A stretch of 42,513 nt of DNA from a virus, in IMG/VR virus record IMGVR_UViG_3300048605_000012. One strand, written 5' to 3'. Position numbers and translations under genes: made by a program. The notes beneath the pieces were generated by a model. The model worked only from the letters and a program-made list of their open reading frames with translations, searched no databases and had not been told where the DNA came from. Shown here piece after piece: positions 2,886-42,513 of this stretch; positions within the stretch are counted from its first letter, which is position 1; every line of letters starts with the position of its first letter.

Positions 2886-5800
2886 TTTAGTTTGTTTTTC
2901 AATTGACTTACTTCTTTTTTTAGAGATTGGATCTCCTGCTCATGATCACTAAGGATAACATTTTGATACATGGTCAAACGATCATAAGCTAAACCTTCAA
3001 CTTGACCAGAAGAACCATATAAAACGACTTCCTTTAATCCTTTATTATCGAAATCATCAGCCACAAACCCGTAATGCCTTTGTGGTTTGTCTCCGCGAGC
3101 AATTTCAGCTTTATCGTACCAAGATGAAGGGAGAATAGACAAAAACCGTTTTGCTTTAGAAATTACTTCATCGGCCACTTGAATATCTTCTTTATACTTT
3201 CTTGCAGAAGTCGATCGACCTATAGTTCCTGCATTTGTTATAAACATATTTGATGCACTAGAATAGGTTCGATTATAAATGGCCATGCTCCAAATTCTTG
3301 GCGTACTATCCAGACCTAGCGAAATACCTGCAGGAGCATTAGAAAAATAACTATCACCGCCATTATTTAATTCTAATCGATCGGTTTTTAAAGTCATATT
3401 CGCTCCAGAGTAAACATCTAATTTTATCTGGTTATACTTAGCTTCAATTGGCGTGTATAATGAACCACTTTGATTATGCTTTATACGAACCCCATATTCT
3501 CCTTCCACAGAAAGATATTTGTCTCCATCCATTTGCATGACATAGCTGTCCTTGTTACCGGTGACAATTCTTTTTGCTTCCACGGTATTTGTACTAATAA
3601 ATCTGAGTTTTGCGTTCACTGTGTTGTTGAAGTTAACTATTGCGTCCACATTTCCCAAACCGTACATTTTCCACTCCATATTCGTTCTTGAAGACGTATC
3701 TGGAATTTGAAAGATTGGCATAGAAGTTGTATCAGTTGCTGATCCGGTATTTATTGAAAATACCTCTCCAGGCATCTGCACAATGGCTAATCCCACAGGT
3801 TCTTTCGACACATAGATAGGCTGGATTCTGGCTAATTCGTTTGTGCTTCTTCTAAAATAAATGCTCCCTTTTAGAAGTTCCATACTATATTCACCGGAAT
3901 CTGACTGAGTTATTCTCCCACCAGTCAGATCAATTGCATTTAAAGTGCCCGACACAATGCTATTCGCATTTAAGTTGATAATGTTCACATTTGAAGCGTT
4001 TAGCGTTCCAGTGGTAATCTTGGTTGCTGATAGACTACCGATTTTAGCATCAGTGATCGCTGCATCCGCAATCTGAGCAGTGCCAACTGCGAGATTTGCT
4101 ATCTGCGCTCTACCGATAACACCGTCTTCAATAGTAGTCTGGCCGGTTATCCGAACTTTATTACCGGCAATTAAAATTTCTTCTGTAGATAAGTTGATTT
4201 GATTGATTACATCATCTTTTTGAACCCTAACATTCAATTGGTCACCCAAACTACTAATCTGACTTGTGTGACCATTAGCTAAGTCCGTTGTTTGTTGCCA
4301 TTGACTAGCCAACTGTGTTACCTGAGACTGATCAGCCTTGTTAGAAACTGTAGTCTGAATAGTATCCACACGTTGAACAAAACTAGAGAATTTGACCACA
4401 CTGACTTGATCTTCTGGAGATGGTACCCAGTCATTGACGATGGTTCCCTCAGCAATCATAGCGTGCCAGATAATAAATTCTAAATCATCCGCCACCACAT
4501 TTCGATAGAATACAAACTGCATGGCAGCTGTACCAGCAGCTTGCTTAGCTGGATTCCAAACTAATCTTGCGGTTGTTCCGGCTGGCACATCTAAGAACTG
4601 GCTGATATTATTGTGGACTCTCATCGCTTTCGTTCCAGTATTGCTGATATAAATACTATGGATGTAGTTTACATTAGCAGTTATGATACGGTTAGCTCGA
4701 AGAGTACCAACAATGACGTTAGTTCCTCCAGTCACATTGTGTTTGACTGCATTTGTAGCTTTCCATTCAGTTACAGATTGATTCTCGGTATAAGTTATTG
4801 TAGATCCTAAATAATTTGCCACCTTAGGGGATTCAGAATTAGGTAAATAATTTCTAGCCCCTACCGACAAGTTATCAAGATCATTTTTAACACTGCTAAC
4901 TGTACTGCTTAGTCCGGAATAGCTCGATTGTAAACTGCCAATTTGAGTAGTGTGTCCATCAGTTTTTGTATTTAAGGCAGTGATTTGACCAGCTTGAGTA
5001 TTTAAAGACGATTCAACAGAAGTCACTTTTCCACTAATCGTTTCTACATCAGTTTTATTAGCCTTAATTTCTATCTGCCCAGCCATTGTTGTGATTTGAC
5101 CTTCAGCAGTTGATACTCTTCCTGTTAGAGTATTAACTGTACTTGAATCAGCCTTTTGGGTGATAGCATTAGTATTTTGTGTGATCTTAGTCGTTTGATT
5201 TCCGACAGTTCCTTCAAGTGTGTTAAATTTATCTTGGCTGACTTTTCGTGAAAGCTCACCGTTGATTTCACTTAACTCAACTTTTACTTCACCATCTACT
5301 TTATTTGGATCTTTTATCCAAGTATAGTCTTCTGGATTTGTTGATTTTTCATTGCTAAAACCAATATACGTTGGATAGGCGTTGGTAAAGTCGTCGGCCG
5401 GCGCCGGTGTGTAAATTGTAGCTGTATCAGTTGCCGATTCTGCCTTTTCTATTTTAACGTTAGTGATCTCAAAAAAATCACTAGTATCATAAACACTATA
5501 AAACTCAATCGTATCGTAATCTAGCGTTGCGTCCGTCCGTTTAGTAAGAACCGTGTTTACTTCTAACCGTGTTTTTTCGGTCCCTACATTACGAATTAGC
5601 TTACTGGTAAAGATGAAAGGTCCCTTACGATTTGAATTATAAACGGTTAATTGTAGTCCTTTAAGCATTACAATGTCAAAAGATATAACGGCCCTATCGC
5701 CTGATTCAAAATTGTCGACCCAGGTGGTCCCGATATTAAGAGTTTGGTATTCTTTTCCCGATCTAGCTGCAGCTTCCAGGTCGCCGATTTTGGCGGTTTG

Positions 5801-7435
5801 ACTACCTAAAAAATAGTTTTCGTTAGGGTACTGCGTCGTAAAGCGATCAGTACCATCAGCACTCCAAGCGTAAGCTGGGAACATGCCTAATTCTTTAAAC
5901 TTATCAATTGCTGCCTGCGCATCGGTCTTAGCACTGTTAGCAGCGTTCAATGCGTTTTGAGCATTTGAAACTGCCAGCTGTGCATCTTGCTTTGCTGTAT
6001 TGGCGTTTGATATTGCGGAAGAAGCGTCAGCTTTTGCTTGATTAGCTGCAGCATTTGATTGATCTGCTTTCACACTAGCTTCATTAGCTTTACTTACAGC
6101 ATTGTTGGCGTTACTTAATGCATTGGCAGAATCCGTCTTCGCTTGATCAGCTGCTTCTTGAGCATTTTCTCCTGCTTGTTTTGCCTGTTCGATTTCTTTT
6201 ACCAAATCAGGATCTGTTGCAGTGGATACTTTAAACACCCAATCCAATTCTCCAGAACTATTTTTCTCGTATACCCAAATCTCAGTATCTACACCATTTG
6301 GCTTAAACCAAATATCGCCTTCTTTTGGATCTATAGGCTCTGTTTGATCGTAGTAATTGCTGTTCCATTTATTGGCACTAAGAAGAGATTCAACATAATC
6401 CACTCGTTGATTTAAAGGACCACGGTATCTATAAGTTGCCTGTGAACTTGAATTGGTATTTGCTTTTGATTCTGAAGACATTCCACCATTAAAGGTGATA
6501 TTGTACGACAGATTAGGGACAGAATATCTAGTACCGTCTTTATCAACAATATAGATCCAGTCTCCTGCTTCCAAAATGGGACTTCCACGCCACTTCAATT
6601 CGTAAGGAAAATAATTAAGTGTCTTGACTAGTTCCCACATTTGATTCAAATGTGTTTGAGTCATCACTTTATTCTCAAGCTCAACTTGTGATCCATTGGT
6701 AGAACCAACGCGAATGACATCCGTTTCTTCTTCACCGGTTTTCACCGTGATGCCACCAATTCGATAGCTGTTCTCATTTTTAGTAAATCCCTTTAACATG
6801 TATGATTCTGGAGTGATTTCAAAGTTTGTGGGTGCTAGTCTTTTTATTGTTAATTCACCCTTGCGGTTAAAACTTGCAAAACCACCTTCAAACTGAGCAA
6901 TCAAACCGATTGCTTGGCGAAACGTATATCCTACAGGTTTCTGAACCCACTCAGTTCCAAGAGAAGCAAATGAGGCTTGATCAATTTCAACACCTGCTAA
7001 ATTAGCTATTTCTAACGCAACTTCCCGATATGGCTTAGGATAGGTTAATTTTGATTCATATATTCCTTCCATATAAATCATTTTGTCATTTGCAGTAATT
7101 GTAGTCTTATTACTGTTTCTATCACGCTCAAAGTCTGTTATAAAAAAATGACCTAATTTAGTGAACTGATATTCACCATTAATTAAAATCCCCAACTCTG
7201 GTTCAATTTCTAAATCTTCTTTCACTGTTTCAATAATTGTTGGAAAAACTACCTGAACCGAATTCAGAGGGGTTGAACCAATCTGAAACACTTCACCCGA
7301 TATACTGCCAGAATTAAAAGAGAGTGAGGTAATTTCCTCACTCCCATAGGTGATATCATTCATTTTTAATCTGATTGACAATTGCCTTGATGTATTAAGC
7401 CAAGCAGCATGAATTTCTTCACTTGTGGCTAACAA
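2867..7435 (-). CDS. Tail-tip / tail-associated lysin-like fibre protein (1522 aa) with a prophage-tail N-terminal domain, an Ala-rich coiled coil and a C-terminal S74-type intramolecular chaperone domain
   Basis: TTG start with an RBS, sited after the TMP and a small tail protein. An A/N/Q-rich heptad stretch lies near aa 415-515. The C-terminal region (STSARKYKEDI ... YGFVADD ... GLAYDRL) plus a terminal coiled coil is typical of autoproteolytic chaperone domains. Confidence 0.8.
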   Translation of the reverse strand: MLATSEEIHAAWLNTSRQLSIRLKMNDITYGSEEITSLSFNSGSISGEVFQIGSTPLNSVQVVFPTIIETVKEDLEIEPELGILINGEYQFTKLGHFFITDFERDRNSNKTTITANDKMIYMEGIYESKLTYPKPYREVALEIANLAGVEIDQASFASLGTEWVQKPVGYTFRQAIGLIAQFEGGFASFNRKGELTIKRLAPTNFEITPESYMLKGFTKNENSYRIGGITVKTGEEETDVIRVGSTNGSQVELENKVMTQTHLNQMWELVKTLNYFPYELKWRGSPILEAGDWIYIVDKDGTRYSVPNLSYNITFNGGMSSESKANTNSSSQATYRYRGPLNQRVDYVESLLSANKWNSNYYDQTEPIDPKEGDIWFKPNGVDTEIWVYEKNSSGELDWVFKVSTATDPDLVKEIEQAKQAGENAQEAADQAKTDSANALSNANNAVSKANEASVKADQSNAAANQAKADASSAISNANTAKQDAQLAVSNAQNALNAANSAKTDAQAAIDKFKELGMFPAYAWSADGTDRFTTQYPNENYFLGSQTAKIGDLEAAARSGKEYQTLNIGTTWVDNFESGDRAVISFDIVMLKGLQLTVYNSNRKGPFIFTSKLIRNVGTEKTRLEVNTVLTKRTDATLDYDTIEFYSVYDTSDFFEITNVKIEKAESATDTATIYTPAPADDFTNAYPTYIGFSNEKSTNPEDYTWIKDPNKVDGEVKVELSEINGELSRKVSQDKFNTLEGTVGNQTTKITQNTNAITQKADSSTVNTLTGRVSTAEGQITTMAGQIEIKANKTDVETISGKVTSVESSLNTQAGQITALNTKTDGHTTQIGSLQSSYSGLSSTVSSVKNDLDNLSVGARNYLPNSESPKVANYLGSTITYTENQSVTEWKATNAVKHNVTGGTNVIVGTLRANRIITANVNYIHSIYISNTGTKAMRVHNNISQFLDVPAGTTARLVWNPAKQAAGTAAMQFVFYRNVVADDLEFIIWHAMIAEGTIVNDWVPSPEDQVSVVKFSSFVQRVDTIQTTVSNKADQSQVTQLASQWQQTTDLANGHTSQISSLGDQLNVRVQKDDVINQINLSTEEILIAGNKVRITGQTTIEDGVIGRAQIANLAVGTAQIADAAITDAKIGSLSATKITTGTLNASNVNIINLNANSIVSGTLNAIDLTGGRITQSDSGEYSMELLKGSIYFRRSTNELARIQPIYVSKEPVGLAIVQMPGEVFSINTGSATDTTSMPIFQIPDTSSRTNMEWKMYGLGNVDAIVNFNNTVNAKLRFISTNTVEAKRIVTGNKDSYVMQMDGDKYLSVEGEYGVRIKHNQSGSLYTPIEAKYNQIKLDVYSGANMTLKTDRLELNNGGDSYFSNAPAGISLGLDSTPRIWSMAIYNRTYSSASNMFITNAGTIGRSTSARKYKEDIQVADEVISKAKRFLSILPSSWYDKAEIARGDKPQRHYGFVADDFDNKGLKEVVLYGSSGQVEGLAYDRLTMYQNVILSDHEQEIQSLKKEVSQLKNKLKELEAA

Positions 7436-27932: not shown

Positions 27933-28036
27933 TGGGTCTTTTTTCCGTTATCGCTGACGATTACTGACTTATTTGTTTTTTTACAATCTAAAGATTTTTT
28001 ATTATCAAAAAATCAAATAACGATATTTTCAATTCA

Positions 28037-28067
28037 TTTACATTAATTCTATTAATTAGTATATAAT
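28037..28067 (+). promoter_or_regulatory. Sigma-A-like promoter of the 102-aa moron (TTTACA-17-TATATAAT)
   Basis: Hexamers at 28037-28042 and 28060-28067. Confidence 0.55.
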
Positions 28068-28089
28068 CTAACTGAAAGGTGGTTTATCT

Positions 28090-28398
28090 ATGAAAAAAAT
28101 TTGTTTTGTCTTAGTGCTCAATAATGTAATGTCGTATACGCCATTATCTCCGGGACTTCTTTTTAAAAAAGATACAAGCCTTAAAGATTATTTCTCTCAG
28201 TTTTACGATGTTTCAGTAAATTATCTTAGGGACAAAGATAATGTTGACTACTTGGTCCTTCCTGAGCCATTCGTTCCTTTTGATAATGAAAACAACCTTC
28301 CTATCATAAAAGTTCCTTCTAAATTCTTTCTGACTAAAGATTTTGAAAAAATTAAAGAGTACATTGATGACTACTTTAAAGAAAACGATGATAAGTAA
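28090..28398 (+). CDS. Hypothetical protein (102 aa) with a hydrophobic N-terminus; moron-like cassette
   Basis: RBS AAAGGTGG, own promoter and strong terminator, and very AT-rich coding sequence. Confidence 0.6.
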   Translation: MKKICFVLVLNNVMSYTPLSPGLLFKKDTSLKDYFSQFYDVSVNYLRDKDNVDYLVLPEPFVPFDNENNLPIIKVPSKFFLTKDFEKIKEYIDDYFKENDDK

Positions 28399-28426
28399 CG
28401 CTATCCTCGATCGTTTATAGCCCCTA

Positions 28427-28456
28427 CTGGTTGATATCATTATCAATCAGTTTTTT
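28427..28456 (+). terminator. Strong rho-independent terminator of the 102-aa gene
   Basis: A 10-bp stem CTGGTTGATA/TATCAATCAG with loop tcat, followed by TTTTTT. Confidence 0.8.
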
Positions 28457-28476
28457 ATTTCGTCGGATAGCTGACT

Positions 28477-28695
28477 TCAATTTGCTTTTTGATTAGTTAT
28501 CCGATTCAAGAATTCTTTTTCAAATAGTATAGTGTTAGTGTTGAACCAATTAGCCAGCTTTAAATCATCACCACTAAGCCAATGTGTTCCGTTTATTAAC
28601 CAATCAACGTCCGCACTATATAAATCATGCAAAGATCGATATTTTTCAGATAGTCGGTTAATTTCATTAATTACCATAACTGGTATTTTCTTCAT
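28477..28695 (-). CDS. Hypothetical small early protein (72 aa)
   Basis: ORF translationally coupled (ATGA) to the upstream 55-aa ORF. Confidence 0.55.
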   Translation of the reverse strand: MKKIPVMVINEINRLSEKYRSLHDLYSADVDWLINGTHWLSGDDLKLANWFNTNTILFEKEFLNRITNQKAN

Positions 28696-30192: not shown

Positions 30193-30233
30193 AAGTTATG
30201 CACATATCCACAAAGTTATGCACAATATATTGT
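30193..30233. repeat. Tandem 12-bp direct repeat AAGTTATGCACA (x2, 20-bp pitch) abutting the 12-bp palindrome ACAATATATTGT, upstream of mazG
   Basis: Copies at 30193-30204 and 30213-30224. The palindrome is at 30222-30233. Confidence 0.8.
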
Positions 30234-30263
30234 AGGAACGTATTTTCGCCCACTATATATTGA

Positions 30264-30461
30264 TTACTTTGTTCTTTTATAGCCCAATTCAATCAAAAAC
30301 TCTTCCCTTTGGTTCAAAGCGTTACGATAAATCGCCTGTACACCAATTTGATCCGCATAGGCTTTTCCTTCTTGACTAGTAATAAAACGATAGGTCCTTG
30401 CTGTTTCATCTACTAAAATCGCGTGAAATTCGTTGTAATAAATTCTTTTCAAAATATTCAC
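30264..30461 (-). CDS. Hypothetical small protein (65 aa)
   Basis: ORF abutting the recombinase stop. Confidence 0.55.
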   Translation of the reverse strand: MNILKRIYYNEFHAILVDETARTYRFITSQEGKAYADQIGVQAIYRNALNQREEFLIELGYKRTK

Positions 30462-30462
30462 C

Positions 30463-31461
30463 TCAACTTACAAACTTTTGATGGGAGATCTTCACTTCAT
30501 CATCATTGATCATCGAGTAAGCCATCGTAGTCTCAATATTTTCATGACCGAGGAACCTAGAAACGAGTTCTATCGGCATCCCGTGTCTTCTCGCAAGTGT
30601 TGCGGCTGTCCTTCTGAATCTGTGTGGGTGAACATTCAAAACACCTGCACGTTCCCCTAGACGATTGACCAACTTTTGGATTCCGGCATTAGTCATCTCT
30701 TTCCCTCTCGTCTGTCCATAAAATAATGGACCAGTGATGTGAGGCACCTCTTTTAAGTAATAATTCAATGCCAGCTTTGCCTTGGCATTAAAGTATAAAG
30801 TTCTTTGCTTGTTGCCTTTTCCAATCACTTCAATCGAATCATTTTCTTGGTCATAGTTACTAAAATTGAGAGAAACCAATTCAGAGACTCGACATCCAGT
30901 ACTCAATAGCAGTTCGATGATTAGCGTTTCTTTCGCATTAGATGCAGCAATTCGTAGCTTTTCAACTTCAAGCTCGCTGAATTCTTGTTTGCGCCTTTTG
31001 GGTACTTTTATCTTTTCCACCCTTGCGCCAGGATCTCGATCGATAAACTCTTCGATATACAGCCAGTGAAAGAACCTAACGATGCAGCCACGTTCACGAG
31101 CAAGCGTACCTTTAGATATTCGATCCTGAATTTCCCTGTTGGCAATAAACAATCGAATGTCATTTGTGGTGATATCCTTAAACGGCTTTCTAAGCTTGCT
31201 CATGAAGAAGTTGATCGTCTGCATATAAAGTTTCAACGTTCCGTCTGAAAGCCCCTGAATCTTCTTTGACACCATAAATTGATGGTATGCAGCTGCATCG
31301 GATCTCTCATCATAGATCACTACATCAGTTGAAGTTTTAACTAAGTCGAAGGAATCCAAATGCATCAATAGAAGCATATTTACTTTCCTAAGTTGTTCTG
31401 GATCCAAATCATTTTCTAAATCTCCAACAATTTTATTAATCAGCGACTCCTTGTTGGTCAT
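30463..31461 (-). CDS. Second tyrosine recombinase, XerC/XerD-like (332 aa)
   Basis: The catalytic region is GCRVSEL ... HPHRFRRTAATLA ... LGHENIETTMAYS (R, H-x-x-R, H, Y). It has an N-terminal SAM-like core-binding domain and no arm-binding domain. Confidence 0.85.
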   Translation of the reverse strand: MTNKESLINKIVGDLENDLDPEQLRKVNMLLLMHLDSFDLVKTSTDVVIYDERSDAAAYHQFMVSKKIQGLSDGTLKLYMQTINFFMSKLRKPFKDITTNDIRLFIANREIQDRISKGTLARERGCIVRFFHWLYIEEFIDRDPGARVEKIKVPKRRKQEFSELEVEKLRIAASNAKETLIIELLLSTGCRVSELVSLNFSNYDQENDSIEVIGKGNKQRTLYFNAKAKLALNYYLKEVPHITGPLFYGQTRGKEMTNAGIQKLVNRLGERAGVLNVHPHRFRRTAATLARRHGMPIELVSRFLGHENIETTMAYSMINDDEVKISHQKFVS

Positions 31462-31470
31462 CGTTCACTC

Positions 31471-31653
31471 CTAACCGAAACTCTTTCGAATTTCATATTC
31501 GTGGTCGATCAACTCTTTCAATGTATCTTTGGGATATAATTTCTTGCCCGACCGCTTTTGATGCTGCACACACAACCACTGAAACTTTTCGATGGTTGCA
31601 TCATCCATAGCGTATCTGGGTCTTTTTTTCTTCGTAGCCAACAGGTGGGACAC
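31471..31653 (-). CDS. Small basic protein, possible ribbon-helix-helix DNA binder (about 55-60 aa, start codon uncertain)
   Basis: KKKRPRYAMDDATIEKFQWL resembles an RHH N-terminal strand plus helix. It lies immediately upstream of the recombinase, and 12-bp repeats overlap its start. Confidence 0.4.
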   Translation of the reverse strand: MSHLLATKKKRPRYAMDDATIEKFQWLCVQHQKRSGKKLYPKDTLKELIDHEYEIRKSFG

Positions 31654-31677
31654 CTCCTATGAAATGGTGGGACACCT
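31644..31677. repeat. Tandem 12-bp perfect direct repeat GGTGGGACACCT (x2, 22-bp pitch)
   Basis: Copies at 31644-31655 and 31666-31677. One copy overlaps the RBS and start of the RHH-like gene. Confidence 0.85.
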
Positions 31678-31683
31678 TGAGGG

Positions 31684-31989
31684 TTACTCCTTCCAGCGGT
31701 AAATTCGCCCTTGTTTATCAGGTTTCCCACTTTGGATTAAATTTTTAACAGTGACTTTGGACTTCTTGCATTTCTCACTAACGGTTTTCTTATTTCCTGT
31801 AAAAATGACGTCCCCTTTATACAGGACCTCAACTAAACGTTTTTCAGGGTTTACACCTTCATAGAGATCCTTCCGAAGCTTTTCCCATTCTCTTTTGGCA
31901 TCGGGGTCTTTTTCAAGATCGACTTTTTCCGCAAGGTAAACCATCCGTTGCCGGCGAATCTTTTTTTCAAGACTTTTTTCTTTATCCAT
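31684..31989 (-). CDS. Hypothetical protein (101 aa) with a NUMOD-like C-terminal DNA-binding motif
   Basis: The motif VSEKCKKSKVTVKNLIQSGKPDKQGRIYRW is present. The assignment is tentative. Confidence 0.4.
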   Translation of the reverse strand: MDKEKSLEKKIRRQRMVYLAEKVDLEKDPDAKREWEKLRKDLYEGVNPEKRLVEVLYKGDVIFTGNKKTVSEKCKKSKVTVKNLIQSGKPDKQGRIYRWKE

Positions 31990-37712: not shown

Positions 37713-37741
37713 TTGACACACCTCGGAAAATATTCCATAAT
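37713..37741 (+). promoter_or_regulatory. Rightward near-consensus promoter (TTGACA-17-CATAAT) with the operator GGAAAATATTCC in its spacer
   Basis: The -35 is at 37713-37718, the -10 at 37736-37741, and the operator at 37725-37736. Confidence 0.6.
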
Positions 37742-37865: not shown

Positions 37866-37876
37866 CAGAAAAATAT

Positions 37877-37892
37877 GAAAAATTTTCCGAGG
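37877..37892. promoter_or_regulatory. Third operator copy (CCTCGGAAAATTTTTC on the minus strand) next to the cI RBS
   Basis: It matches the 37721-37736 site (CCTCGGAAAATATTCC) at 14 of 16 positions, in inverted orientation. Confidence 0.55.
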
Positions 37893-37899
37893 TGTAAAA

Positions 37900-38703: not shown

Positions 38704-39645
38704 ATGAAAAAAGTCGTACCGTGCTTATTGTTTGTTGGTTTAATAATGACCGGATGTTCTAATAATGAAGAAAGTACAACTCCCCCAACTGATACAACTT
38801 CTCAAACGACTTCTGTTTCTGAAGAACAGAAAGCTGACTTCGAATATGGGAAAATCATTACTGACGAGTTTGAACTTACTTATAAAAATTCTGAAATAGT
38901 TAAAAGTCCGTCTGAAGATGGCTATGGGTTATATATAACGTATTCATTAAAGAATACTTCAGATAACAATATCACACCTATTGATATTATTAATGATTAC
39001 GTTTTATTTAAACAAGAGAATGAAACTTCTGAGGTTGATCTCGATAACACCTACTATAGCTTAGATGCATTTGGATCAACAGATGATGTCGAATCATATA
39101 ATGAGCAAGTTGATAAAGAAAACTCTCGTTCTGATGAACTGTTACCCGATAAAACCGTGGACATAATAGAGACTTACTCTCTGGACAACTTAGATTTCCC
39201 AGTTAAAATGATAGCTATGTATGAAGATAAAGAAATAGGTATTTATGAAATTGATTTGACTGAATTAGAAAAGCCTGAAGAAACAAAATCTTTAGCCAAT
39301 ACAAATAATCCCAATGAAGATAGTTCCTATAACGAAGGCCTTTCCGATATGCCAGCAAGCTGGCAAGAAGGTGAAGCTGAGTGGGAAAAAGCAAAGGCTG
39401 AAGGCTGGACAGCCGAGGATTGGGAAGAAGCAGTCAGAGCTAGTGAAAACGAAACTTATGTAGTAGGTTCCGGTCAATATGAAGATTCATTTAATGGTAG
39501 TCAAGCTGAGCAAACAACATTGCCTGAAGGAACTTCTGAAAATGCAAGACGTATATATAATGAAATAAAAAGTATTCAAGATAGAGAATTAACATCTGGT
39601 GAAATTCAAACATTAGAAGCAATCGAACAAGGCTATTACGAGTAA
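38704..39645 (+). CDS. Lipoprotein (313 aa) in the lysogeny module, candidate superinfection-exclusion factor
   Basis: Signal peptide with the lipobox LIMTGC, a Thr/Ser-rich linker, a beta-rich domain and an acidic Trp-rich C-terminus. Confidence 0.7.
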   Translation: MKKVVPCLLFVGLIMTGCSNNEESTTPPTDTTSQTTSVSEEQKADFEYGKIITDEFELTYKNSEIVKSPSEDGYGLYITYSLKNTSDNNITPIDIINDYVLFKQENETSEVDLDNTYYSLDAFGSTDDVESYNEQVDKENSRSDELLPDKTVDIIETYSLDNLDFPVKMIAMYEDKEIGIYEIDLTELEKPEETKSLANTNNPNEDSSYNEGLSDMPASWQEGEAEWEKAKAEGWTAEDWEEAVRASENETYVVGSGQYEDSFNGSQAEQTTLPEGTSENARRIYNEIKSIQDRELTSGEIQTLEAIEQGYYE

Positions 39646-39747
39646 ATAAAAAACACGCCCCTCCGACCAAAGACAGGCGTGCAAAACAAAATAAACGATA
39701 GGCTTATTTAGTCATGCCTATTGTATCAAAGAATTGAGGTATACACA

Positions 39748-40887
39748 ATGTGGAGCGAATCTTTAGGCAACGGAAGATATAAGTTTATAGAAAGATACAA
39801 AGATCCCTATACCGAAAAATGGAAAAAGACAAGTACTGTTCTAACAAGTGATTCTTCCAGAGCCTGGAAGAATGCACAGAAAATATTAGACAAAAAAATA
39901 GAGGAAGCTTTAAGTAATTATGATAAATCTGACATCACTTTCAAGGAGCTTTACGAAGAGTGGTTTGTTTATTATCAACAACATGTAAAAAGAACAAGTT
40001 GGACCAAAGTTCCAAAGATGATGAAACATATTCAAAAAGTTATATCTGACGATGTTCTTGTTCGAAATATAGACGAGAATATGATTCGTAATATTACAGA
40101 AAAAATGTATACTTTCGGTGACCTATCCTTGAATTATACGAAACAGACCAAGACGACCCTTTCAATCATGTTGAATTATGCAGTTGAGAAAAAGTATATT
40201 AAACAAAATCTAGCGCTGAATGTCAAAATTCAAAGAAAAAAAGCTGAAGAAGAAAAAAGAAAAAAGAACATGGATGAAAAATACCTTGATCAAAGCGAAA
40301 TGACAGAGTTGCTTGTATATATGAGAAAATCTACTAAAAGATTATTGCACGCTAACATTGCAGAATTGTTATATTTAACAGGCCTAAGATACGGAGAGTT
40401 ACAGGCATTACAAGTAAAGGACTTTGACGGGAGTACTTTGGATATTAACGGCACATTGGACTATTCTTTCTTAAAAATGGCAGATGCTATAAAAACTTCA
40501 CCTAAAAATATCTATTCTAAAAGAATAGTTTCTTTGCCTAATAGAGCAGTAAAAATTGTTAATGAAATCATAGAACACAACTCTTTAGTATTTGGCTCCC
40601 AAAGTAACGAGGATTATATATTTAAATCATCTAGAGGTACTCCGTTGTCTCTCCATAGCTTTAATATGGTACTGCATAGAGTTCAAGACGAACTAAAATG
40701 GGATAAAAACTTATCCTCACACATATTCAGACATAGTCATATTTCTTTACTAGCTGAATTGAATCTTCCTTTAAAAACCATAATGGAGAGAGTCGGACAT
40801 TCCGATGCCAACACGACTTTATCAATTTATAATCACGTGACCAAAAAATCCAAAGAGCAGGTTATCGATCGATTAAACAATTTGTAA
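39748..40887 (+). CDS. int: Phage integrase, tyrosine recombinase (379 aa from MWSESLGNGRYKF)
   Basis: N-terminal arm-binding-type domain. Catalytic motifs are GLRYGEL ... HIFRHSHISLL ... VGHSDANTTLSIYNHV. Confidence 0.9.
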   Translation: MWSESLGNGRYKFIERYKDPYTEKWKKTSTVLTSDSSRAWKNAQKILDKKIEEALSNYDKSDITFKELYEEWFVYYQQHVKRTSWTKVPKMMKHIQKVISDDVLVRNIDENMIRNITEKMYTFGDLSLNYTKQTKTTLSIMLNYAVEKKYIKQNLALNVKIQRKKAEEEKRKKNMDEKYLDQSEMTELLVYMRKSTKRLLHANIAELLYLTGLRYGELQALQVKDFDGSTLDINGTLDYSFLKMADAIKTSPKNIYSKRIVSLPNRAVKIVNEIIEHNSLVFGSQSNEDYIFKSSRGTPLSLHSFNMVLHRVQDELKWDKNLSSHIFRHSHISLLAELNLPLKTIMERVGHSDANTTLSIYNHVTKKSKEQVIDRLNNL

Positions 40888-42321: not shown

Positions 42322-42513
42322 TTGGAAAACATTGTTAACAGCTCTTGGGAATACTTTAAAACAGAAGCAACTTTAGATCCTTCTAAGGTAGGAAAATGGA
42401 TGATTTTTTTCGATTTTCCAACTAGCCGAGAAGTTATGAAGAATTATTGTAGAGAAGCTGTTGAAAAAGAAATTATACCTTCCTCTAAATTGAGTAATAG
42501 ACCTAATCCAGCA
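42322..42513 (+). CDS. N-terminal part of accessory operon gene 5 (wraps to 124..360 of the window)
   Basis: The TTG at 42322 lies 8 nt after GGAGG. The frame runs without a stop to the window end and is identical to bases 1-123. Confidence 0.6.
   Translation, partial: MENIVNSSWEYFKTEATLDPSKVGKWMIFFDFPTSREVMKNYCREAVEKEIIPSSKLSNRPNPA
42391..42513. repeat. Terminal direct repeat copy 2 (identical to 1-123)
   Basis: Base-by-base identity with the first 123 nt of the window. Confidence 0.95.

Follow-up and report, generated by a model that had tools for sequence, protein, structure and literature searches.

Simple tyrosine recombinases of the Xer/Cre type are normally understood through a site that adjoins their gene. 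Such a cognate site lies beside the genes of XerA, XerS (difSL) and XerH (difH), as well as beside those of Cre (loxP, P1) and ResD (rfsF, F), which belong to replicons in the plasmid state, and the genes of the hsdS invertases and of Rin adjoin the inverted repeats on which these enzymes act. Phages may also encode proteins with the tyrosine recombinase fold besides their true integrase, such as MrpR (YopR) of SPbeta and SroF of phi3T, which have a degenerate active site and act in lysogeny control; MrpR keeps three of the seven catalytic residues and does not recombine DNA (PMC10516654). Here, we analyze the gene for a 332-amino acid (aa) Xer/Cre-type tyrosine recombinase (positions 30463–31461, minus strand) in the IMG/VR virus record IMGVR_UViG_3300048605_000012, a stretch of 42,513 nucleotides (hereafter, the window) from a temperate Enterococcus siphophage. 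This gene is intact and strongly conserved, recurs as a lone gene in the early lytic operons of many temperate phages and, in contrast to the simple recombinases above, has no linked site. We tentatively propose that it encodes a dispensable, catalytically competent, trans-acting accessory recombinase of the lytic programme with an unlinked substrate.

An earlier reading of the same DNA (the original prediction) had described a second tyrosine recombinase inside the replication module, with a small ribbon-helix-helix (RHH)-like partner, and had suggested four roles for it: multimer resolution of an episomal form, inversion of a nearby segment, integration at a second site, or membership of a captured mobile module.

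Sequence and predicted structure of the recombinase

An AGGAG ribosome-binding site is located 7 nt upstream of the recombinase open reading frame (ORF), which was characterized with Pfam, PHROG, NCBIfam, alignments, AlphaFold and Foldseek. The protein matched the Pfam family Phage_integrase over residues 166–320 (4.9e-29; PF00589 at 101.7 bits vs. a cut-off of 27.1) and the SAM-like core-binding family Phage_int_SAM_4 over residues 61–135 (7.7e-11), and its PHROG matches were integrase families. Seven catalytic residues, R191, E194, K215, H280, R283, H306 and Y315, were invariant in alignments of 11 and of 29 homologues at 32–93% identity and lined up with the catalytic residues of E. coli XerD. 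Pfam, the alignments and the comparison with XerD thus agree with the original prediction in that the window encodes a second tyrosine recombinase with a full and non-degenerate catalytic set.

The AlphaFold model of the protein, with a predicted local distance difference test (pLDDT) value of 88, comprised four parts: an N-terminal two-helix hairpin (residues 3–35, with helices at 3–15 and 21–35), a disordered linker that still holds invariant residues and the conserved motif VIYDExSDxAAY (36–54), a four-helix core-binding domain (55–136) and a catalytic domain with all seven catalytic residues (163–330). The two-domain fold of the tyrosine recombinase superfamily, with a helical core-binding and a catalytic domain, is therefore present in the model. 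In Foldseek searches, the best match was XerA, followed by lambda Int, IntI4, XerD, XerH and Cre (probability 1.00). This Xer-like fold, together with the Phage_int_SAM_4 match, is in line with the predicted Xer-type core-binding domain. The further claim that the protein lacks an arm-binding domain needs to be qualified. No Arm-DNA-bind Pfam family was among the matches, and in the AlphaFold model the conserved 35-residue N-terminal module consists of two helices rather than of a lambda-type β-sheet arm domain; however, these helices form an extra module that precedes the core-binding domain on a linker.

The ratio of nonsynonymous to synonymous substitution rates (dN/dS) was 0.08–0.12 for pairs of recombinases at 76% to 97% identity, which shows that this intact gene is held by purifying selection. 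With such a gene, DNA cleavage and strand exchange would be the default reading of its activity.

As predicted, the recombinase gene lies in the early/replication region and exists besides a canonical phage integrase gene (39721–40887, plus strand; 388 aa), which was recognized in PHROG and NCBIfam scans and belongs to the lysogeny module about 9 kb away, where the original prediction had also placed attP. A homologue of this integrase is found at the prophage end adjoining groEL in L004 (here and below, L-numbers denote loci of relatives compared with the window, and G001 and G002 denote host genomes), and integration of the phage is accounted for by this enzyme. Between the early promoter at ~37.85 kb and the recombinase gene, we detected no promoter-like or terminator-like site, so the recombinase should be made together with the replication proteins. 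The intergenic gaps of 9–35 nt around the gene hold ribosome-binding sites only.

Phylogeny and distribution

The protein search returned hundreds of relatives of the recombinase. At 72–97% identity, the relatives with a named source came from genomes of the E. casseliflavus group and from one partial Listeria monocytogenes record, and the remaining ones were metagenome proteins. The phylogenetic placement that had been suggested with the original prediction was carried out in a maximum-likelihood tree of 97 proteins. The recombinases from early operons of Lactobacillales (43–97% identity) formed a single clade with a Shimodaira–Hasegawa-like approximate likelihood ratio test (SH-aLRT) support of 100, and the XerC and XerD proteins of the hosts (24–29% identity) fell apart from it with a support of 99. 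In the same tree, this clade was part of an unresolved polytomy with four other groups, namely (i) recombinases whose gene comes after that of an HsdM-N-terminal-like protein, in early operons of phages from gut Clostridia, Fusobacterium and Selenomonas and at one locus on a Methanobrevibacter contig, (ii) recombinases encoded between tail-fibre and holin genes, including those of phiCp-D and TPELB_ph1, (iii) recombinases in Type I restriction-modification loci and (iv) a Treponema clade.

In all annotated prophage contexts, the recombinase gene was situated between the replication/recombination genes and the region that extends from YopX to the terminase. The prophages that bear it varied in their other modules: the annealing protein was Sak, ERF or RecT, the junction resolvase was RusA, RecU or missing, the initiator was DnaD-like or of the Rep type, packaging was of the pac type or of the HNH/cos type, and the integrase with its attB adjoined either groEL or lepA.

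Members of the clade were present in 12 of 134 Enterococcaceae species genomes, three of which had two copies. Within the casseliflavus genus set, one genome out of eight had a member, and that copy was broken. The gene is therefore recurrent yet not a standard component of these phages, and no replication-associated role is known for it. In our literature search, which did not cover all journals, no description of this recombinase clade or of its role was found.

Among the more distant relatives, a protein of ~230 aa (phrog_5696) preceded the recombinase in 35 of 80 cases (loci L023–L065); examples of such pairs are found in L076 (7310–8993), L061 (7265–9029) and L063 (7215–9002). This protein has motifs X and I–III of N6-adenine methyltransferases (GQFFTP, NEPSCGGGG, QDLD...) and ends before the catalytic NPPF. 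Two pairs are arranged in tandem in L025, and one locus with a pair lies on a Methanobrevibacter contig without any recognisable phage gene.

Loss and decay of the gene

The loss of the recombinase gene was followed in 25 viral contigs with the 91-aa gene that is found upstream of L006-type recombinases. The recombinase was present in 14 of these contigs, reduced to its first ~109 codons in one and absent from at least seven. In the empty loci (L125, L126, L134, L138–L140 and L143, compared with L136), the sequence CAGAAATTTGTTAGTTRA, which corresponds to the last ~19 nt or six codons of the recombinase ORF, was retained and fused to the 91-aa gene a few bases beyond its stop codon; the gene that came next varied, with at least five different ones observed. 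Since the end of the ORF is kept and the junctions show microhomology only, the empty loci are deletions with microhomology at most and not site-specific excisions. This remnant (…AAATTTGTTAGTTRAGAATCGGRAGAAAT…) acts like a common border sequence at which modules are exchanged.

Damage was also observed within the close clade, where it affected four of 13 loci: L011 has a stop at codon 316, the reading frame of L017 shifts after about residue 229, codons 1–122 are missing from L018 and L019 contains three stops, although an assembly error is possible for any single damaged locus. In sum, the recombinase is dispensable, sporadic and often deleted or broken.

Search for a target site

The search for dif-like sites and inverted repeats, which had been proposed along with the original prediction, revealed no target in the phage. 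We compared the phage with the candidate host dif, which we take to be ACTTTGTATAATATATATTATGTAAACT in a casseliflavus-group genome on the basis of its match to the dif sequence of B. subtilis. The best match was at 21 of 28 positions and was located inside the int gene, and shuffled sequences reached 18–20. Inverted repeats in the whole window, in the local 6.5 kb and in the tail region were limited to pairs at chance level, and no inversion or rearrangement was seen in 14 related loci, all of them colinear with the window.

The comparison of divergent recombinase loci, whose flanks were covered to ±10 kb in most cases, gave similar results. These flanks had no motif in common, and words of at least 13 nt shared by divergent loci did not occur outside coding homology; the 11–14-mers in common were just A/T-rich words and the start of YopX. 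Further, no stretch of raised synonymous-site conservation was detected inside the recombinase gene. A genome-wide scan for dyads of the form 11-(6–8)-11 returned mostly terminators and no dyad near the recombinase gene, and the dyads near modules of the sister clades showed nothing recurrent.

Several individual elements were considered as sites and rejected. The first was a perfect 12-6-12 palindrome at 2856–2885 (AGAGTTAGAAGC-tatgca-GCTTCTAACTCT), which was found elsewhere in only one viral contig and did not co-occur with the recombinase. It overlaps the stop codon of a tail gene, with a T-rich run behind it, and is most likely a terminator or an RNA hairpin.

The second was an intergenic element of ~70 bp (30194–30262, minus strand), in which two ACAATATATTGT palindromes or near-palindromes at a 33-bp pitch are followed by three 9-mers. 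Read on the plus strand, these 9-mers are TTATGCACA, ATATCCACA and TTATGCACA, with at most one mismatch to the DnaA-box consensus TTATNCACA. This is the sole cluster of DnaA-box-like sequences in the genome, and at least nine other Enterococcus phage contigs, which have no recombinase, carry the element as well, in varied gene contexts. As a dif-like site of the recombinase it was discarded because it matches the candidate host dif at only 16 of 28 positions (aligned by hand), its repeats are DnaA boxes and it is present without the recombinase. It may serve as an origin that depends on DnaA, as a site that titrates DnaA or as a regulatory site.

A shufflon of hsdS genes in the host was likewise dismissed, since hsdS is absent from G001 and the single hsdS of G002 is an ordinary one.

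An opposite-strand moron cassette of 530 bp (27943–28483) contains a gene for a 102-aa protein with a hydrophobic N-terminus. It is 93–98.5% identical in L006, L016 and L019, in which the surrounding DNA is only 66–80% identical, and this pattern suggests a recent horizontal spread. The cassette was rejected as a target that travels with the recombinase, since it was found in only three recombinase-positive contexts and was absent from most others.

Neighbouring genes

A small basic ORF precedes the recombinase gene, as the original prediction had noted. It encodes a protein of 56 aa (31471–31641, minus strand) and most likely starts with the TTG at 31641, which matches the start given by the gene caller in L004; a start at the GTG at 31653 would extend the protein to 60 aa. 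Further upstream lies the gene for a 101-aa early protein, phrog_5224 (31684–31989, minus strand). On the other side of the recombinase gene, an ORF of 62 aa (30264–30452, minus strand) most likely starts with the TTG at 30452 (65 aa from the GTG at 30461). Because their dN/dS values are 0–0.25 with substantial dS, the 56-aa, 62-aa and 101-aa ORFs are all real genes under purifying selection.

The RHH-like character ascribed to the 56-aa protein could not be confirmed. Searches of Pfam, PHROG and NCBIfam gave no match, and the family, with six clusters only, is too small for a profile. The AlphaFold monomer (pLDDT 67) showed a coil at residues 1–13 and helices at 14–31 and 38–55, which corresponds to a basic tail and two helices, and had no Foldseek match at E ≤ 0.001; an RHH fold is a possible interpretation of this model.

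Two copies of GGTGTCCCACC at a 22-bp pitch (31644–31676, minus strand) cover the Shine-Dalgarno sequence and the start of the 56-aa gene, and L018 has three copies (5769–5823) instead of two. These repeats were always tied to the 56-aa gene and to the 101-aa gene upstream of it (in the window, L018 and L172–L174), and they may represent an operator or a translational control element of this two-gene module. They were not retained as a recombinase site, given that they occur with the 56-aa gene in phages that have no recombinase.

Such phages also bear on the proposed partnership between the 56-aa protein and the recombinase, which did not hold. L172 and L173 lack the recombinase but carry homologues of the 101-aa and 56-aa genes together with the GGTGTCCCACC repeats, and in L174 an extra gene separates the 56-aa homologue from the recombinase. 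The true companion of the 56-aa gene is the 101-aa gene. The downstream ORF, predicted with 65 aa and as coupled to the recombinase, is a real gene of 62 or 65 aa; its coupling to the recombinase was, however, not borne out, since in L154 its homologue directly follows the 101-aa homologue, with neither a 56-aa gene nor a recombinase.

Conversely, the recombinase is found in other company. The recombinases at 73–76% identity (L003, L006) follow RusA and the 91-aa gene, the one in L020 (51% identity) follows SSB, and others follow dUTPase, RecU or DUF1599 genes, such that recombinases of 43–76% identity have wholly different neighbours. As the small genes occur without the recombinase and vice versa, the recombinase is a single-gene unit whose neighbours in the window are there by mosaic chance and are not partners.

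Organization of the phage genome

The window carries an exact terminal direct repeat of 123 bp (1–123 = 42391–42513) and is therefore a circular (or circularly permuted) assembly of ~42.39 kb. Enterococcus phages and prophages of the E. casseliflavus/gallinarum group are closely related to it at the DNA level. Most genes are on the minus strand, and their order is typical of a temperate siphophage: lysis and tail genes (0.4–13 kb) and head and packaging genes (16–24 kb) are followed by the long early operon (24.6–37.8 kb) and by a divergent lysogeny module, which combines cI-like, ImmA-like and DUF5067 genes with the integrase gene (39721–40887). Rfam and tRNA scans returned nothing, and hence no RNA element, and PADLOC gave no match to a defence system.

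Two further sequence features were recorded. An inverted repeat of 22 nt (91% complementary; 37718–37739 and 37874–37895) brackets 134 bp in the divergent promoter region between the cI-like and early operons, and probably represents repressor operators. In addition, a perfect match of 17 nt in inverted orientation links the gene for a 1522-aa tail protein (3722–3738) with the DUF5067 gene of the lysogeny module (38786–38802). About 0.05 such matches are expected by chance, and this one may reflect a domain or linker shared by a virion protein and a surface protein expressed from the prophage.

Proposed function and alternative explanations

None of the four roles suggested in the original prediction (multimer resolution, inversion, second-site integration or a captured module) received positive evidence. 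Under the tentative proposal of an accessory recombinase with an unlinked substrate, the gene would be co-transcribed with the early replication and recombination genes, and the protein would be absent from the lysogen and appear once the phage infects or is induced. Like XerA, XerD and Cre, it would presumably assemble as a tetramer on two copies of a site of ~30 bp and would exchange strands through a 3'-phosphotyrosine at Y315. The target would be DNA common to all these infections, be it the host chromosome, an element resident in the same cell or a structural feature of DNA rather than a sequence, and the benefit would be conditional, with the gene being readily lost. No replication, packaging or integration module is common to the phages among which the gene moves, and it has no linked site; this suggests a target other than a phage site inherited along with it. 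A sequence-specific target borne by the phage is disfavoured because mosaicism would quickly part the recombinase from a distant site, unless such a site escaped our searches.

A number of points weigh against this proposal. To our knowledge, all characterised simple tyrosine recombinases (Cre, XerS, XerH, FimB/E, the hsdS invertases and Rin) have a site that adjoins their gene. Action in trans on host or other DNA would be an argument from absence, as the target was not found, and the two host genomes (G001 and G002) showed no obvious candidate such as an hsdS shufflon. If sites change along with the enzyme, word searches between members at 50–76% identity may also miss them, and the flanks compared extended to no more than ±10 kb at most loci. 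Finally, the timing of expression would follow from sequence features and nothing else.

A more specific version of the proposal, which we regard as unlikely, is that the recombinase acts in trans on DNA that is absent from the phage, or on a DNA structure, as a tool of host takeover or of conflict between elements. A possible host target would be dif or another conserved site, at which recombination independent of FtsK could prevent cell division or rearrange the chromosome; alternatively, the recombinase could target a mobile or defence element residing in the same cell. If true, this would explain why the same lone gene without a linked site recurs in the early operons of Lactobacillales phages and, probably, also in phages of gut Clostridia, Fusobacterium and Selenomonas and at one locus on a Methanobrevibacter contig.

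Among the alternatives, the one that survives best is a resolvase that, like Cre at loxP or ResD at rfsF, acts at a phage-borne site and converts dimers or concatemers into monomer circles. The multimers would arise from theta replication and from the phage annealing protein, and monomers would favour single-copy lysogeny or circularisation. The gene does share the early operon with replication genes and Sak, its closest characterised relatives in sequence and fold are the Xer resolvases, and the absence of a pair of sites in cis for inversion fits one site per genome. Nevertheless, no conserved site was found beside or inside the gene in any lineage, and the sole nearby element with dyads and repeats is the DnaA-box cluster, which recombinase-less phages have as well. 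The gene, moreover, is associated with unrelated replication and packaging modules and is often lost, and the prophages are integrated and not plasmid-like. We therefore consider a resolvase improbable, to about the same degree as a takeover tool.

Less probable still is that the gene is, or belongs to, a self-mobile or captured cassette, either a selfish one that enters early operons or a second integrase that uses a different attB. Deletion junctions with microhomology, at which the empty loci keep CAGAAATTTGTTAGTTRA, are not what site-specific excision would leave, no repeats flank the gene, and in every prophage it is internal, with the ends set by the other integrase. It is true that the unit of presence and absence is a single gene and that this same gene lies within many unrelated flanks; single genes, however, commonly move in phage mosaics without being self-mobile.

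An invertase for remote phase variation, which would act on a tail-fibre tip, as in the Rin shufflon, or on a promoter elsewhere in the phage or host, is slightly more doubtful again. This idea draws on the sister clades, whose members adjoin the hsdS of Type I restriction-modification loci or lie between tail-fibre and holin genes, whereas here neither the tail region nor the surroundings of the gene contain a credible inverted-repeat pair, none of the 14 related loci has an inverted segment, and G001 and G002 lack an hsdS shufflon. An early-operon position would also be odd for phase variation.

Lastly, a non-recombining regulator with the recombinase fold, of the type of SPbeta MrpR/YopR or phi3T SroF, is highly improbable: such phage regulators exist and Foldseek matched MrpR (8a0a) and SroF (9rd5, 9rgl) at ~1e-7, but the identity is just 11–13%, all seven catalytic residues are invariant here over 32–97% identity vs. 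three of seven kept in MrpR (PMC10516654), and the gene lies outside the lysis-lysogeny control region.

The accessory recombinase with an unlinked substrate thus remains our preferred, if tentative, reading. Identification of its substrate could uncover a role for site-specific recombination that is new to phage DNA metabolism or to phage-host conflict, and could provide genome engineering with a new, compact pair of recombinase and site. For annotation, the presence of such a gene should not be read to mean that a phage has a second integration system, lives as a plasmid or contains a mobile island. The present analysis contributes the structure of the clade, data on the loss of the gene, the finding that the supposed partners are not coupled to it, the recognition of the nearby element as a DnaA-box cluster and several explicit negative tests.

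Comparison with known systems

XerA (5hxy, 4a8e) is the best NCBIfam match of the phage recombinase, with 206.3 bits vs. a cut-off of 220, and gave a Foldseek value of 2e-16. XerD (1a0p) was matched by phmmer at 4.4e-25 and reached 143.9 bits in NCBIfam vs. a cut-off of 329.6, and XerC reached 149.3 bits vs. 335.15. The phage recombinase shares with XerA and XerD the two-domain layout, all catalytic residues and the lack of a lambda-type arm domain, but differs from them in its extra N-terminal two-helix module and in being phage-borne and dispensable. It is not an orthologue of chromosomal XerC or XerD, since the hosts' own proteins, at 24–29% identity, belong to another clade. In contrast to XerA, XerS-difSL and XerH-difH, no cognate site was found beside its gene.

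Cre and ResD resemble it as simple tyrosine recombinases that a mobile replicon encodes besides its other functions, and multimer resolution is a plausible task. In their case the site adjoins the gene and the replicon is in the plasmid state, whereas the phage analyzed here integrates via another integrase and has no linked site. The structural similarity to Cre is distant (~11% identity, 3e-8). Further, no partition gene was present among the ~25 ORFs of the window that were scanned with Pfam, PHROG and NCBIfam, and the relatives of the phage are chromosomally integrated prophages that use the other integrase.

Integron integrases and lambda-type integrases are further removed. The former matched at 64.8 bits vs. 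a cut-off of 265 (TIGR02249), and no repeated attC-like sites were found in the window; the latter have a β-sheet arm domain, whereas the N-terminus of the phage recombinase is formed by two helices and a linker. MrpR/YopR and SroF are comparable as phage proteins with the tyrosine recombinase fold that exist besides a true integrase, but they combine a degenerate active site with lysogeny control, in contrast to the complete active site and the early-operon accessory position of the protein studied here.

The hsdS invertases and Rin belong to the same broad family (32–43% identity), and the clades adjacent to hsdS and to tail-fibre and holin genes are part of the same polytomy. However, their genes adjoin the inverted repeats that are acted on, whereas the phage recombinase gene has no repeats nearby and lies in an early lytic operon. 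The hsdS-associated members also do not align over the N-terminal ~60 residues of the phage recombinase. The phrog_5696 modules differ from the Lactobacillales clade by the ~230-aa protein that precedes their recombinase, a neighbour that this clade does not have. In other respects they are alike, as both have a recombinase of the same family with the N-terminal extension, encoded after the replication genes and before YopX and the terminase.

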